From Steroidobacteraceae bacterium (GTDB lineage: Bacteria > Pseudomonadota > Gammaproteobacteria > Steroidobacterales > Steroidobacteraceae), in the NCBI GenBank assembly GCA_036381695.1, contig DASVCI010000051.1:2578-66577 (forward strand): a stretch of DNA of 64,000 bases, given 5' to 3'. Positions 712 through 53,414 of the stretch are shown here, in pieces. The position numbers and the translations under genes are program-made. Under the pieces are notes generated by a model. The model saw only the letters and a program-made list of their open reading frames with translations, was not told the origin of the DNA and ran no database searches. Position 1 is the stretch's first letter. The number at the start of each line of letters is the position of its first letter.

Positions 712-736
712 GGAACCCGCCCACTTCAGGCGCGTT
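712..736 (+). promoter_or_regulatory. EcfG/ECF15-type promoter
   Basis: GGAAC-N16-CGTT upstream of the gene at 799. Confidence 0.65.
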
Positions 737-798
737 CTCAGGGCAACTGGCGCATGCGGCGGCTTCGGCCGCCGCGACCAGCATCGAGGAGGCCCGTC

Positions 799-1008
799 AT
801 GGCCCTGGACGAACGCGATCCACGCTATCACACCAGGAACGTGCGCCAGCAGCTCGCCGCGCTCATCGATCACTTGCACGAGGACATCGAGAAAGTGGAC
901 GAGCCGCAGCTCAAATCGCTGTTCGAGGCTTCAGCCGACGTGCTCTCGGGTCTCACCAGGGCGCTCAGCGAATATGAGCGCCGCTACGAGCGTGCTCGCG
1001 GGGCGTGA
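799..1008 (+). CDS. Small helical hypothetical protein (69 aa)
   Basis: GAGGAGG RBS; MALDERDPRYHT..IDHLHEDIEKVDEPQLKSLFEASA; stop overlaps the start of the next gene. Confidence 0.75.
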   Translation: MALDERDPRYHTRNVRQQLAALIDHLHEDIEKVDEPQLKSLFEASADVLSGLTRALSEYERRYERARGA

Positions 1009-1529
1009 ATACGATGCAAACGCAGCATAGATACGCCTGGCGCGAGACCGGCCGGCAGGCGCTCGTCTCCGGCTCCATTGCGAGCATCCTCTCGACGACC
1101 GTGCTCGCCACGCGCGGCGTTGCGGAAGTCGGCAGTGCGGTTGCACCGACCAACGCCACGAGTCATTGGCTTTGGGGCGAGGGTGCGTATGACGAATATC
1201 GCCCCACGCTGAAGCACACAGCGCTTGGTTATCTCACCCACCACGCTTCGGCGATTTTCTGGGCATTCCTGCTCGAGCGCGCGCTCGATCGAAAGCACAA
1301 TCCCGGCACGGCGGAGATCATTGGCAGCGCTGCGATCACTACAGCGCTCGCCGCGTTCGTCGACTACGAGCTCACGCCCCGACGACTGCGCCCCGGGTTC
1401 GAAACGCATCTCTCACGTGGCTCGCTGGTCGCGACATTCGCGGCAATCGGCGCGGGACTCGCGATCGGGGCGCTGCTCAATCGGCGCCACGAGCGTCGGA
1501 TGGAAAAGTTGCTCATCCTGGAAGAGTGA
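1005..1529 (+). CDS. Hypothetical membrane protein
   Basis: GTGA overlap with the upstream gene; 3-4 hydrophobic segments; NATSHWLWG and DY.LTPRRLRPGFE.HLS motifs. Confidence 0.75.
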   Translation: MNTMQTQHRYAWRETGRQALVSGSIASILSTTVLATRGVAEVGSAVAPTNATSHWLWGEGAYDEYRPTLKHTALGYLTHHASAIFWAFLLERALDRKHNPGTAEIIGSAAITTALAAFVDYELTPRRLRPGFETHLSRGSLVATFAAIGAGLAIGALLNRRHERRMEKLLILEE

Positions 1530-1573
1530 CTTTCGATATCGGCGACGGCCAAGCTCGCGACGCCTGGCGGTTG

Positions 1574-1963
1574 TCACTCCACAATTTTCGCGCCGCGCTC
1601 CCGCAGCAATTGACGCAGGACGGAGCGGTGACAGCGCGCTTCGTTCTCGCAGTAGCAGCCCACCGAGAATGAGGTTTGATGCGAGAGCGCCGCGAGCAAG
1701 TCGAGCAAACGAGCCTTCTCCGGCTCCTTCATTTCCGAAATGTAGCGCCGCACGAACGCTTTCCACTTCGCGTCCGTGTCGGCCGCCAGCGCCATCTTGA
1801 CCAGAGGCTCGCTCGGCGCGAGGTTCGGCAGCCAGACGTCATAGTAGTCGCGGCGCGCCCATTCTGATTTCGGCACTCCGCGCGGCGGCCGACGCACCGT
1901 GCCAATCCTGACCCCTTCATTGCGCGCGCGAGGTTGACCCAATCGAACGATGGCGACCGGCAT
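1574..1963 (-). CDS. DUF488 family protein
   Basis: TVRRPPRGV..WLPNLAPS..CYCENEARCHRSVL. Confidence 0.85.
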   Translation of the reverse strand: MPVAIVRLGQPRARNEGVRIGTVRRPPRGVPKSEWARRDYYDVWLPNLAPSEPLVKMALAADTDAKWKAFVRRYISEMKEPEKARLLDLLAALSHQTSFSVGCYCENEARCHRSVLRQLLRERGAKIVE

Positions 1964-2108
1964 GATGTGTCCCTGTGTTCCGCAGCAATCGTAAATCGTG
2001 CGGCGCTCCCGGACCGCCCGGGCCGCCGCTCTTACGGGATTAATCTACTTCACCCGCGCGATTCGTGCAGAATGCCCTCCTCGCCCATGACAACGAGGAG
2101 CCCGAGGG

Positions 2109-50453: not shown

Positions 50454-51380
50454 GTGCAACCGATCATCCAAGTCCGCAATCTCGTCAAGACCTACGCCTC
50501 GGGCTTCGAGGCCCTCAAGAACGTCAGTCTCGACATTCATCGGGGTGAGATCTTCGCGCTGCTCGGGCCGAACGGCGCCGGCAAGAGCACGCTCATCAAC
50601 ATCATCTGCGGCATCGTCACGCCCACCTCCGGAACGGTGACGGCCGACGGTCACGACATCCAGCGCGAGTACCGGGCCGCGCGCTCGAAGATCGGGCTGG
50701 TGCCGCAAGAGCTCACGACCGATGCGTTCGAGAGCGTATGGGACACGGTCAAATTCAGCCGCGGCCTGTTCGGCAAGTCGCTCGATGCCGCTTATCTCGA
50801 GAAGGTGCTGCGTGACCTGTCGCTCTGGGACAAGAAGGACACGAAGATCATGCAGCTCTCGGGCGGCATGAAGCGGCGCGTGATGATCGCCAAGGCGCTG
50901 TCGCACGAGCCGCAGATCCTGTTCCTCGACGAGCCGACCGCGGGCGTCGATGTCGAGCTCAGGCGCGACATGTGGGACATGGTGCGCTCGCTCAGGGAAA
51001 GCGGCGTCACCATCATCCTGACGACGCATTACATCGAGGAAGCCGAGGAGATGGCCGATCGCATCGGAGTGATCAACCACGGCCGGATCATCCTCGTCGA
51101 GGACAAGCGCACGCTCATGCGCAAGCTCGGGCGCAAGCAGTTGACGGTGCACTTGCAGGCGCCGCTCGAGTGCGTGCCGCCTGAGCTCTCGCACCCGAGC
51201 CTGGAGCTCAAAAGCGATGGCACCGAGCTGATCTACACCTTCGATGCGCAGAGCGAGGACACGGGCATTGCCAGGCTCCTGAGGCGCCTCAACGAGCACG
51301 GCATCGACTTCAAGGACTTGAGGACCGAGGAAAGCTCGCTCGAGGAAATTTTCGTGAACCTGGTGAGCTCGCGACGCTGA
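50454..51380 (+). CDS. ABC-2 transporter ATP-binding protein (YadG-like)
   Basis: [31 protein letters not shown]. Confidence 0.93.
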
Positions 51381-52141
51381 TGAACACTTACGCCATTCAG
51401 GCCATTTACAAGTTCGAGATGGCGCGCTGGTTTCGCACCGTCGTGCAAAGCGTGCTCTCTCCGGTGATCTCCACCTCGCTGTACTTCATCGTGTTCGGCG
51501 CTGCGATCGGCTCGCGCATGGCCGAGATCGACGGTGTGAGCTACGGCGCCTTCATCGTGCCGGGCCTCATCATGCTGTCGGTGCTGACGGAGAGCGTCTC
51601 GAACGCCTCCTTCGGCATCTACATGCCGAGATGGGCGGGCACGATCTACGAAGTGCTGTCGGCGCCGGTGTCGTTCGTGGAAATCGTGCTCGGCTACGTC
51701 GGCGCGGCGGCGACGAAATCGATCCTGCTCGGGCTCATCATCCTCGTGACGGCACGGCTCTTCGTCGATTTTCACATCGAGCATCCGCTCTGGATGGTGG
51801 CGTTCCTGCTGCTCACCTCGGTCACGTTCAGCCTGTTCGGCTTCATCATCGGCCTGTGGGCGAGCGGCTGGGAGAAGCTGCAGATCGTGCCGATCATGAT
51901 CATCACGCCGCTCGCCTTCCTCGGCGGCAGCTTCTACTCGATCAGCATGCTGCCGCCACTCTGGCAGAGCATCACGCTCTTCAATCCCGTCGTGTATCTG
52001 ATCAACGGCTTCCGCTGGGCGTTCTACGGCATCGCCGATGTGAGCGTCGCGCTCAGCCTGGGCATGACGCTCGTGTTCATGGCGCTGTGCCTGGCGGTCA
52101 TCGCCTGGATTTTCCGGACCGGGTGGCGGCTCAAAGCTTGA
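51380..52141 (+). CDS. ABC-2 permease (YadH-like)
   Basis: About 6 TMs; [29 protein letters not shown]. Confidence 0.92.
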
Positions 52142-52147
52142 GGACTC

Positions 52148-52352
52148 CTACATCCCCTCCCCCGCTTGCGGGGGAGGAACAGTGTGGAGAAACGCCTGTC
52201 TTACGTCCCCTTCCCGCTTGCGGAGGAGGAACAGTGTGGAGGGACGCCTGTCTTACGTCCCCTCCCCGCTTGCGGAGGAGGGACAGGGTGGGGGGACGCC
52301 TGCCTTACATCCCCTCCCCCGCTTGCGGGGGAGGGACAGGGTGGGGGGACAC
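52148..52352. repeat. Four tandem ~52-bp units, each carrying the REP-like palindrome
   Basis: Unit approximately CTTACRTCCCCTCCCCCGCTTGCGGRGGAGGRACAGKGTGGRGGGACGCCTG, four times. Confidence 0.9.
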
Positions 52353-53222
52353 CTGAACCGGCTCCTGACTCTTGCGAGTAGCGAGCCACGAGCCGACCAG
52401 AATCATCAACATCCCGACGGCGGCGCCGAAGCCGAACGGCTCATCGAGCACCCACACTCCCGCCAGAGCCGCGACGCCCGGGCAAACGTAAGCGACCACT
52501 GCGGCACGCGCCGCTCCCGCCTCGGTGATGAGATACAAATAAAGCACGAGCCCGGCCGCCGTGCAGAGCGTCCCAAGCACGACCACCGACACTATCGAAA
52601 GCATCGAAGGCATCCGGGCGGGAATCGAAAACGCAGCCAACGGAGCAAGCAGGACGGCGGCAACGACGAGGCTGGCGGCGACCGCTCCTGTCTCGTCCAC
52701 ATCCGCCAGATGCTTCTGCACGAGGAGCGGGCCGATCGCATAGCCGATGCTCGCGACCATGACGCAAGCGACGCCCGCCCAGAGCATCGGCCCCTGATTC
52801 GGATCTACACCAGAAAGCGTGAGCACGCCGAGAAATCCGATGAAGAGGCCGAGAAGCCGCGCGGGCCCGAGCCTCTCGGACAGGCCGAAGAGCGGCGCAA
52901 GCAGCAAGACCAGCATCGGCACCGTCGCGACCAGGATGCCGGCGAGCGAGGAGCTGATCCACTGCTCGCCGGTTCCGATCAGAACGAACGGCGCGACGAG
53001 CTCGATGATGGCGAACGCCACGATCGCCCCTTTGTGCTCGAACACCTTATCGAGCGCGCCGCGCTTGCAGGCAATCGGCAGCAACACCGCGGCAGCGAGT
53101 GTGATGCGGGTGAACGCGATCCAGACGGGCGAGAGGTCCGCGAGAGCGAGCTTGATGAAGAAGTACGGAACTCCCCATACCACGCACAGCACGACAAACG
53201 TTATCCATGCACGCCACGTCAC
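52305..53222 (-). CDS. EamA/DMT family transporter
   Basis: About 10 TMs; WGVPYFFIK, EQWISSSLAG, VAYVCPGVA..LDEP; C-terminus and stop come from a repeat unit; start approximate. Confidence 0.88.
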   Translation of the reverse strand: MTWRAWITFVVLCVVWGVPYFFIKLALADLSPVWIAFTRITLAAAVLLPIACKRGALDKVFEHKGAIVAFAIIELVAPFVLIGTGEQWISSSLAGILVATVPMLVLLLAPLFGLSERLGPARLLGLFIGFLGVLTLSGVDPNQGPMLWAGVACVMVASIGYAIGPLLVQKHLADVDETGAVAASLVVAAVLLAPLAAFSIPARMPSMLSIVSVVVLGTLCTAAGLVLYLYLITEAGAARAAVVAYVCPGVAALAGVWVLDEPFGFGAAVGMLMILVGSWLATRKSQEPVQVSPHPVPPPQAGEGM

Positions 53223-53389
53223 TCGGGACACCTGCTTCGAAGGGATTTTGGGGGGGATGAAGACGCCGCACGTTATCTCAGTTGCACGGCTGGAGTGAAT
53301 AGCCGAGCTCAGGAGCCTTCGCCGCAGTGCGCGCACACGAAAGGCTGCCCCCCACGCGGAGGTTTGCCGGCACGCGAGCCCCGAGGCCC

Positions 53390-53414
53390 GGAACTATGAC
53401 CCGGCACAGCCATT
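53390..53414 (+). promoter_or_regulatory. EcfG/ECF15-type promoter
   Basis: GGAAC-TATGACCCGGCACAGC-CATT (N16). Confidence 0.6.

Follow-up and report, generated by a model that had tools for sequence, protein, structure and literature searches.

Conserved GGAAC-type boxes point to an EcfG-like general stress regulon in a Steroidobacteraceae gammaproteobacterium

Results

Six GGAAC-type boxes in the window

We analysed a 64,000-nucleotide stretch of DNA (the window) from a Steroidobacteraceae bacterium, which lies on contig C51 of a 3.08-Mb genome assembly (G000; 211 contigs, 65% GC, 79% complete). An earlier note, written from the window sequence alone, had described six copies of a bipartite box, GGAAC-N16/17-(C/G)(G/A)TT, and likened them to promoters of the alphaproteobacterial general stress response (GSR), which are read by EcfG, an extracytoplasmic function (ECF) sigma factor of group ECF15. 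All six boxes were found in the window at the positions and on the strands reported, each upstream of a start codon on its own strand. Genes were called across the whole genome with our own codon-bias caller, giving 2736 genes and 89% coding DNA, and Pfam matches on about 50 window genes agreed with these calls.

The first box, GGAAC-N16-CGTT (712..736, forward strand), ends 62 nt before a 69-aa open reading frame (ORF; 799-1008) that overlaps a 174-aa ORF (1005-1529); both are without matches in Pfam and NCBIfam. A second box of the same form (4936..4960, reverse strand) ends 38 nt before the gene for a stand-alone receiver of 131 aa (4502-4897). This protein had been taken for a PhyR-like receiver. 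Its top NCBIfam matches were PRK13435-type receivers and the receiver half of PhyR, all below cutoff, and it is not PhyR. Further along the reverse strand, a GGAAC-N16-GGTT box (5623..5647) ends 69 nt before a PEBP/YbhB-family gene (4978-5553), and a GGAAC-N17-CATT box (7105..7130) ends 77 nt before the gene for a 232-aa, sensor-less pseudo-histidine kinase (6329-7027). Between these two genes lies another stand-alone receiver, of 151 aa (5823..6278, forward strand; Pfam Response_reg, 68 bits), without a motif of its own; the order PEBP, receiver, pseudo-kinase is kept in relatives. The remaining boxes are both GGAAC-N16-CATT on the forward strand: one (33316..33340) ends 31 nt before the gene for an 81-aa EF-hand protein (33372-33617), the other (53390..53414) 45 nt before that for an HtrA/DegP protease (53460-54935). 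Outside the window, another small EF-hand gene (C211:14022-14279) bears a GGAAC-N17-CGTT box.

The window as a whole held seven matches to GGAAC-N16/17-SRTT (S, C or G; R, G or A) where 2.48 were expected, a number reached in 1 of 100 dinucleotide-preserving shuffles. The seventh (15001..15026, reverse strand) lies within a gene for a PMT-type glycosyltransferase, has no downstream target and is probably a chance occurrence. Two weaker variants had also been proposed, with different outcomes. GAAAC-N17-CGTT (41093..41118, forward strand) precedes genes for a GT4 glycosyltransferase (41131-42222) and a GDE/MGH1-like glycoside hydrolase (42252-44375), and is a probable promoter of the pair. Its class is enriched (8 versus 1.3), and its extended -35 element, GAAACTTTTGC, resembles that of the nepR promoter described below, GGAACTTTTGCA. 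As the motif ends merely 12 nt before it, the called GTG start of the GT4 gene may be wrong. The second variant, GGAAC-N16-CATC (47826..47850, forward strand), 47 nt before an ATG at 47898, found no support, its class being unenriched (5 versus 2.7 genome-wide, 2 versus 1.34 in the window). For the 193-aa ORF at this position the caller took a TTG start at 47949; the ATG at 47898, with a GGAGGAG Shine-Dalgarno sequence just upstream, is likelier.

Motif statistics across the genome

Across the assembly, GGAAC-N16/17-SRTT occurred 163 times; 81 matches lay in the non-coding 11% of the DNA, and 55 within 150 nt upstream of a start on the same strand. When the -10 element was fixed as CGTT, sense-oriented upstream regions held 16 matches at a spacer of 16 and 18 at a spacer of 17, compared with 1-4 at each other spacer from 12 to 22. 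Because this control runs in identical upstream DNA, base composition cannot account for the signal. Per Mb, GGAAC-N16/17-CGTT was found 54-61 times in upstream DNA and 0.7-4.7 times in coding DNA, a difference of about 25-fold. The motif is enriched upstream of genes in a spacing-specific manner.

The degenerate -10 element of the earlier note was also borne out. With GGAAC fixed, counts at spacers 16/17 exceeded the control-spacer mean for CGTT (34 versus 4.7), GGTT (12 versus 2.0) and CATT (11 versus 2.0), and likewise for AGTT (9 versus 2.0) and CCTT (8 versus 1.7). With CGTT fixed, GGAAC was the only strongly enriched -35 element. Among its one-base variants the clearest excess was found for CGAAC (10 versus 2.0) and the GAAAC class mentioned above, with smaller excesses for AGAAC, TGAAC and GGAAT.

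Candidate promoters numbered about 34 under the strict definition and 74 under the relaxed one, with a median distance of about 55 nt to the start codon. By start of the target gene, seven of the 74 relaxed sites belong to the window, compared with 1.5 expected (Poisson P ~0.001). The motif of one of these seven sits about 270 nt past the window end; it is a strict box, before a metallo-beta-lactamase-fold gene that runs from 63360 to beyond the end of the window. The window is thus moderately rich in sites of a regulon that spans the genome. The series of motifs that had suggested a window-wide regulon was real, and its confinement to the window was not.

A predicted PhyR-NepR-EcfG locus outside the window

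Genes for both PhyR and NepR were found in the assembly, on contig C164. There, phyR (35222-35992, reverse strand) diverges from an operon whose first gene is nepR (36179-36367, a 62-aa ORF), followed by ecfG (36414-36986) and a gene for a 599-aa HisKA_2 sensor kinase (37092-38891). PhyR scored 366.6 bits on NF006623 (cutoff 240) and has its three expected parts, PhyR_sigma2, PhyR_sigma-like and receiver (PF22029, PF22233 and PF00072). Its full length aligned with PhyR of Caulobacter (3N0R, E = 7e-83), in which the acceptor-region segment LVLADIxLADGSSGIDAV is kept. NepR scored 49.6 bits on PF18557 (cutoff 25.7) and matched the NepR chain of 3T0Y (E = 2.7e-4); on the NCBIfam equivalog NF051865 it reached 33 bits, below the cutoff of 100. 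The sigma factor is 46-58% identical to products of ecfG genes that lie beside phyR in alphaproteobacteria, and gave a PhyR_sigma2 match of 52 bits. The kinase encoded after it combines a HisKA_2 domain (90 bits) with a HATPase_c domain, and a second HWE kinase is encoded on contig C159.

The assembly holds 19 genes of the sigma-70 family, at least 15 of them ECF-type. Among the operons of these 19, a full GGAAC box was found at nepR-ecfG only.

A DDE_Tnp_1_4 transposase gene (C164:33286-34668) lies about 550 nt past the 3′ end of phyR. The interval between the two holds a single gene, for a DUF1328 protein, which has an EcfG box of its own.

Promoter conservation in relatives

Each of 42 Steroidobacteraceae phyR/nepR intergenic regions carried a box, GGAACTTT...(C/A)GTT, 55-104 nt before nepR, with a -10 of CGTT in 41 and of AGTT in one. 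Between the two conserved elements, the spacer varied in sequence and in length (16 or 17 nt). One of the loci (L192) comes from an unpublished genome (G593), and the result is unchanged when it is left out. Such a pattern is what an EcfG promoter under its own control would be expected to leave. The boxes are assigned to EcfG because of this conserved, apparently autoregulated nepR-ecfG promoter; the motif alone would be insufficient, since boxes of the GGAAC/CGTT type are common to several ECF groups. A palindromic, bidirectional nepR/phyR promoter, as described in Erythrobacter (10.1101/641647), was considered and found no support: the bases after CGTT are not kept as GTTCC.

For the window genes, footprints were read orthologue by orthologue because identity to the relatives is no more than about 70%, coding DNA included. 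For HtrA, all eight of the closest orthologues (67-71% identity) had, at one and the same position, a box starting with GGAACT; seven of these end in ..ACAG(T/C)CATT and one (L222) in CGTT. Among 21 DegP homologues of lower identity (57-66%), which are probably paralogues, the box was present in three. Orthologues of the pseudo-kinase had a GGAACTCC...AGTT box in 9 of 13 relatives, and PEBP orthologues a GGAAC-N16/17-NNTT box in 13 of 20. The latter pattern was also found at 15 of 19 loci that encode distant homologues of the 174-aa protein (39-51% identity) within the genus. No orthologues of the 69-aa ORF or the 131-aa receiver were found in the syntenic regions of the relatives examined, so the promoters of these two genes have no comparative support. 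A BON-domain target elsewhere in the genome (L100), sought in five congeners, gave no match at E = 1e-15.

Host placement and distribution of PhyR

The closest relatives of the PhyR protein, at 80-89% identity, came from Steroidobacter flavus CGMCC 1.10759, Peristeroidobacter soli JW-3 and metagenome-assembled genomes labelled Steroidobacteraceae or Gammaproteobacteria. Next best were alphaproteobacterial proteins (Parvibaculum, Sphingomonadales, Rhodospirillales) at 55-60%, and identity did not exceed 60% to any that were found. Over 20 kb, the window DNA is collinear with those Steroidobacteraceae genomes at 68-82% nucleotide identity; the same 20 kb gave four weak matches each in Sphingomonas melonis and Parvibaculum. 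NCBI taxonomy places Steroidobacteraceae in the Gammaproteobacteria, order Steroidobacterales. As rpoB was not found in the 79%-complete assembly, the placement uses window synteny and PhyR neighbours, and by these the host is a Steroidobacteraceae gammaproteobacterium of the GTDB genus that also includes S. flavus and P. soli, which by coordinates correspond to G557 and G559. The case that the earlier note had raised conditionally, of a host that is not an alphaproteobacterium, is the one that holds. It is unlikely that C164 is a binning contaminant, because isolates hold the locus on Mb-scale scaffolds.

PhyR was detected in 53 of 58 genomes of the genus (49 above cutoff; G593 included), in 9 of 151 genomes and 3 of 40 genera of a family sample, and in none of 399 other genomes, from about 240 families, of a class sample. 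Of the controls, Caulobacter matched in every run, and the archaeon Methanosarcina acetivorans gave one below-cutoff match, in the looser family run at E<=1e-20. The five genomes of the genus without PhyR comprise two that are 100% complete (G048 and G104) and three that are incomplete. In a quick maximum-likelihood tree, the Steroidobacteraceae PhyRs grouped in a single clade (SH-aLRT 100), which has a long stem and excludes the sampled sequences of Sphingomonadales, Parvibaculum and Rhodospirillales. The tree topology fits a single old acquisition followed by vertical descent.

With TIGR02394, no above-cutoff RpoS match was obtained from G000 (79% complete), nor from four congeners that are 99-100% complete (G048, G104, G078 and G559); the search of these five genomes returned only RpoD, RpoH-like and FliA-like matches. 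In the literature, sigma-S has been assigned to Gammaproteobacteria and EcfG to Alphaproteobacteria (10.1101/641647), and EcfG has been called exclusive to the latter (PMC3892343). Among the top-ranked matches of full-text searches, we found no account of PhyR, NepR or EcfG in Steroidobacter or other gammaproteobacteria. The automatic annotation of NCBI would already name these genes; the databases thus hold the fact, and it is a discussion of it that was not found.

Genomes that lost the switch

The two complete genomes without PhyR differ in what is left. G104 has neither PhyR nor EcfG, its best ECF match being 36% identical. In the complete genome G048 (L285, G048:C1:190000-202000, ~6015-7254), phyR persists as two fragments only, covering residues 5-80 and 208-256. 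Its nepR, HisKA_2 kinase gene and GGAAC...CGTT promoter box are absent, and ecfG is intact at 80% identity. From these remnants, the GSR locus of G048 appears to be decaying.

Whole-genome counts of GGAAC-N16/17-CGTT were compared with those of the reversed pattern as a control. Where the switch is lost, motif and control counts were 32 and 93 (G048) and 54 and 122 (G104). Where it is present, they were 75 and 90 (G008), 78 and 94 (G078), 86 and 57 (G126) and 69 and 44 (G000). The two switch-less congeners have fewer copies of the motif, which is the right direction, though the measure is crude.

Predicted content of the regulon

Among the genes behind strict sites are those for two BON (OsmY-like) proteins, DUF883 and DUF1328 proteins (the latter next to phyR), a DksA-type zinc finger protein, an Fe/Mn superoxide dismutase, an OmpA-like barrel, a DUF6496 protein and EF-hand proteins of small size. 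The strict set further contains GT4 and Wzy genes, genes for a PLD/VTT protein and a short-chain dehydrogenase (SDR), and genes for PAS-HisKA kinases, CHASE3 kinases and a sigma-54 activator. When relaxed sites are counted as well, a Transgly_assoc protein, a hemerythrin and an RpoH-like sigma factor join the list. The gene for this sigma factor (C23:6511-7392, L130) has a GGAAC-N16-CATT box 134 nt upstream. The position of this box suggests a sigma cascade in which EcfG would control RpoH; such control has been reported for some alphaproteobacteria.

Judged by gene content, this set of targets is similar to the GSR regulons of alphaproteobacteria. Many of the top EcfG-regulated genes of S. 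melonis Fr1 lie downstream of the EcfG motif GGAAC-N17-20-GTT (PMC6599016). Among the top 50 of that regulon are genes for a YbhB/YbcL (PEBP) protein, a glycosyltransferase, glycosidases, outer-membrane proteins and enzymes for glycogen and trehalose; several of the 50, the PEBP gene among them, fall below the authors' motif cutoff, and the boxes listed show the same -10 variants as found in G000 (PMC6599016). Rhizobium etli EcfG1 uses GGAAC-N16-CGTT (PMC3892343).

The pseudo-histidine kinase and neighbouring signalling genes

The 232-aa pseudo-kinase belongs to a narrow family. Only 25 homologues were detectable in 5.8 billion clustered proteins, and those with a name were from Steroidobacteraceae. 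In the family alignment the H-box, KLLHDLRNP(V/I)H, is invariant, and the glycine boxes of the ATP lid, G1 (DxGxG) and G2, were not found. An AlphaFold model (mean confidence score, pLDDT, 89) shows a kinase core made of a dimerization and histidine phosphotransfer (DHp) domain and a domain like the catalytic and ATP-binding (CA) domain, with HK853 and other histidine kinases as best matches in the PDB. The region of the ATP lid is modelled as a short loop of low confidence.

We infer from the model, and by analogy with ChpT, a Caulobacter histidine phosphotransferase whose CA domain is degenerate, that the protein may be a phosphotransferase or phosphatase rather than an autokinase. The two share a DHp domain with a conserved H-box and a CA-like alpha/beta domain in which no ATP-lid glycine boxes were found; they are of similar size, neither has a sensor domain, and there is a weak match to the NCBIfam ChpT model (E = 0.0014). 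The differences are that the 232-aa protein has no significant sequence relationship to ChpT or PhyT, and that its family is limited to those 25 homologues.

Two large soluble hybrid histidine kinases (7436-14937), without motifs of their own, adjoin the pseudo-kinase gene. The first, of 1912 aa, has nine HAMP repeats, GAF, HisKA and HATPase domains and three receivers; the second, of 582 aa, has two receivers. Together, the pseudo-kinase, the two stand-alone receivers and the hybrid kinases are a candidate feedback branch of the response.

Other genes of the window

The window itself encodes three ECF sigma factors. None belongs to ECF15, as the earlier note had suspected: by Pfam and NCBIfam profile search, all three are un-EcfG-like. 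The first is a FecI-like sigma factor which, with FecR, faces a TonB-dependent receptor bearing an STN domain and a GH37 trehalase (533 bits) at 23340-30291; this block may be a sugar-linked cell-surface signalling unit. The second (48564-50164, 413 aa) has a C-terminal extension with DUF6596 and TPR, and is preceded by a YCII-family gene, an arrangement that resembles the ECF42 type. The third is a plain ECF sigma factor with a small gene downstream. Elsewhere in the window, a metallo-beta-lactamase-fold gene (20086-20928) is flanked on one side by a pirin gene and on the other by a gene for an NAD(P)H-dependent FMN reductase of the flavodoxin fold, immediately past which comes a LysR regulator gene.

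Discussion

The nepR-ecfG-phyR locus and its conserved, putatively autoregulatory promoter support the proposal of an EcfG/ECF15-type general stress regulon. We consider it highly probable that the six boxes of the window are EcfG-type (ECF15-like) promoters belonging to a genome-wide stress regulon of some 35-75 promoters, in a Steroidobacteraceae host.

By analogy with the alphaproteobacterial systems, we infer that stress would lead the HisKA_2/HWE kinase, or more than one of them, to phosphorylate the receiver of PhyR. The sigma-like domain of PhyR would then capture NepR, the anti-sigma factor, and the EcfG so freed would guide RNA polymerase to the GGAAC-N16/17-(C/G)(G/A)TT promoters, its own included. 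In the window, this would switch on the genes for the small protein of 69 aa and its putative partner, the 131-aa stand-alone receiver, PEBP, the pseudo-histidine kinase, the EF-hand protein and HtrA, and probably also the GT4 glycosyltransferase/glycosidase pair. The module was presumably gained once, long ago, most likely by horizontal transfer from an alphaproteobacterium, and its regulon would then have been built in the new lineage. The predicted mechanism is canonical; the new part, from genome comparison, appears to be a gammaproteobacterial host without RpoS.

Several observations weigh against this interpretation. The sigma factor falls below the equivalog cutoffs of its top NCBIfam models (PRK12546/12547; 219 bits versus 270, and 205 versus 219). 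Many alphaproteobacteria have an EcfG box in the direction of phyR, and no conserved box of this kind was found in the Steroidobacteraceae phyR/nepR intergenic regions. Upstream of window genes conservation is uneven: the PEBP box is absent in 7 of 20 relatives, and among the closest homologues of the 174-aa protein (55-62% identity) a box was present in just one of nine. A strict site before a CHASE3 kinase gene on C170 has a near-identical counterpart in G104, where EcfG is missing; EcfG may therefore be dispensable for one site at least. With at least 15 ECF sigma factors in G000, and GGAAC-...-CGTT-like boxes in use by several ECF groups, other sigma factors may read some of the sites. The comparison of motif counts is crude in that it uses whole-genome counts from few genomes, and distances to start codons depend on our own codon-bias gene calls. 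The PhyR tree, a quick one with SH-aLRT support, is unrooted, draws on an alphaproteobacterial sample biased to Sphingomonadales, and shows neither donor nor direction.

Some of these points would be explained by a mixed regulon, in which EcfG reads most boxes while those of HtrA, the RpoH-like sigma factor and the CHASE3 kinase are read by, or shared with, another ECF sigma factor. The box of HtrA is conserved in an extended form specific to it (...ACAG(T/C)CATT), the RpoH-like gene has its box as far as 134 nt upstream with a CATT -10, and the box of the CHASE3 kinase is still there in G104, which lacks EcfG. In spacer and -10 class, these three sites nevertheless match the remaining ones, and no second sigma factor with a matching autoregulatory box was found among the sigma operons of G000. 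We regard a mixed regulon as improbable.

It is somewhat less probable still that the boxes as a whole serve a different ECF sigma factor, either RpoE/AlgU-like or one of the 15 or so others, and that the EcfG locus is coincidental. The htrA and rpoH genes are classic sigma-E targets in E. coli, and in G000 both bear the box; many ECF groups use a -35 element containing AAC and a -10 element containing CGT. GGAACTT has been discussed for RpoE (review PMC8103513), and the one site conserved in the EcfG-less G104 could be read in the same way. Set against this, no other sigma operon of G000 bears the box, the nepR-ecfG promoter is kept at every one of the 42 loci, and motif counts are lower in the two genomes without the switch. 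Moreover, the -10 elements CGTT, GGTT and CATT at spacers of 16-17 are those of characterised EcfG regulons. The RpoE -10 element is of the TCTGA/TCAAA type, which these are not. An origin of the matches by chance, or from the base composition of intergenic DNA poor in GC, can be dismissed: the excess in the window taken by itself is modest (7 versus 2.5, with 1 of 100 shuffles as high), and the idea is refuted by the spacer control in the same upstream DNA (16-18 versus 1-4), by strand bias and by conservation upstream of orthologues, the nepR promoters above all.

A further extension of the EcfG reading has the whole PhyR-NepR-EcfG-kinase module entering a Steroidobacteraceae ancestor without RpoS and becoming the general stress system of the lineage, onto which lineage-specific parts in the window (the pseudo-kinase, the two stand-alone receivers and the adjacent hybrid kinases) would have been grafted as a new feedback phosphorelay acting on PhyR. 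We put this forward tentatively and think it rather doubtful. The role proposed for the window signalling genes would be like that of PhyT/SdrG and MrrA/LovK in Alphaproteobacteria.

The literature cited here regards the EcfG/PhyR/NepR switch as the alphaproteobacterial counterpart of RpoS, and a stable copy in gammaproteobacteria would amount to a natural experiment with three aspects. It bears on how a transferred module of sigma factor, anti-sigma factor and anti-anti-sigma factor is wired into a foreign genome; on the assembly of a regulon and its decay after loss of the regulator, as in G048 and G104; and on what serves general stress in gammaproteobacteria without RpoS. The cultured isolates in the clade, S. 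flavus CGMCC 1.10759 and P. soli JW-3, make these questions directly testable. The distribution also advises caution, in that PhyR and EcfG are unsafe as taxonomic markers of Alphaproteobacteria in metagenomes.

Of the known systems that can be compared, RpoE/AlgU shares a GGAAC-type -35 element and has htrA/degP and rpoH among its targets. It differs in its anti-sigma factor, which is RseA and here would be NepR, and the ECF sigma factors of the window, on which the RpoE model TIGR02939 was run, fall below its cutoff (81.7 bits versus 236). The RpoS system would be similar in physiological role, as a protective regulon for multiple stresses and stationary phase, and in the kinds of target, which include OsmY-like BON proteins, ElaB/DUF883 and superoxide dismutase. 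Its promoter type is entirely different from that in Steroidobacteraceae, as is its regulatory logic from the partner switch by sigma mimicry that is predicted here.

The closest system is the alphaproteobacterial GSR, as represented by SigT/NepR/PhyR/PhyK of Caulobacter, EcfG1 of R. etli, RpoE2 of Sinorhizobium and the systems of Methylobacterium and S. melonis Fr1. The present system departs from it in its host, a member of the Steroidobacteraceae that lies outside the class to which EcfG was said to be restricted; in a PhyR at most 60% identical, in a clade of its own; in the lack of a conserved EcfG box before phyR; and in accessory signalling genes (the pseudo-kinase and stand-alone receivers) that are lineage-specific and not orthologues of the PhyT/SdrG/MrrA type. 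Both have the four-part core of PhyR, NepR, an ECF15 or, here, putatively ECF15-like sigma factor and an adjacent HisKA_2 kinase, with phyR divergent from nepR-ecfG as in Rhodospirillales-type loci (L041, L097). Both also have a GGAAC-N16/17-CGTT promoter, autoregulated in the known systems and apparently so here, with GGTT, CATT and AGTT variants, and both number OsmY/BON and DUF883 proteins, PEBP/YbhB, outer-membrane proteins, glycosyltransferases, stand-alone receivers and kinases among their known or predicted targets.

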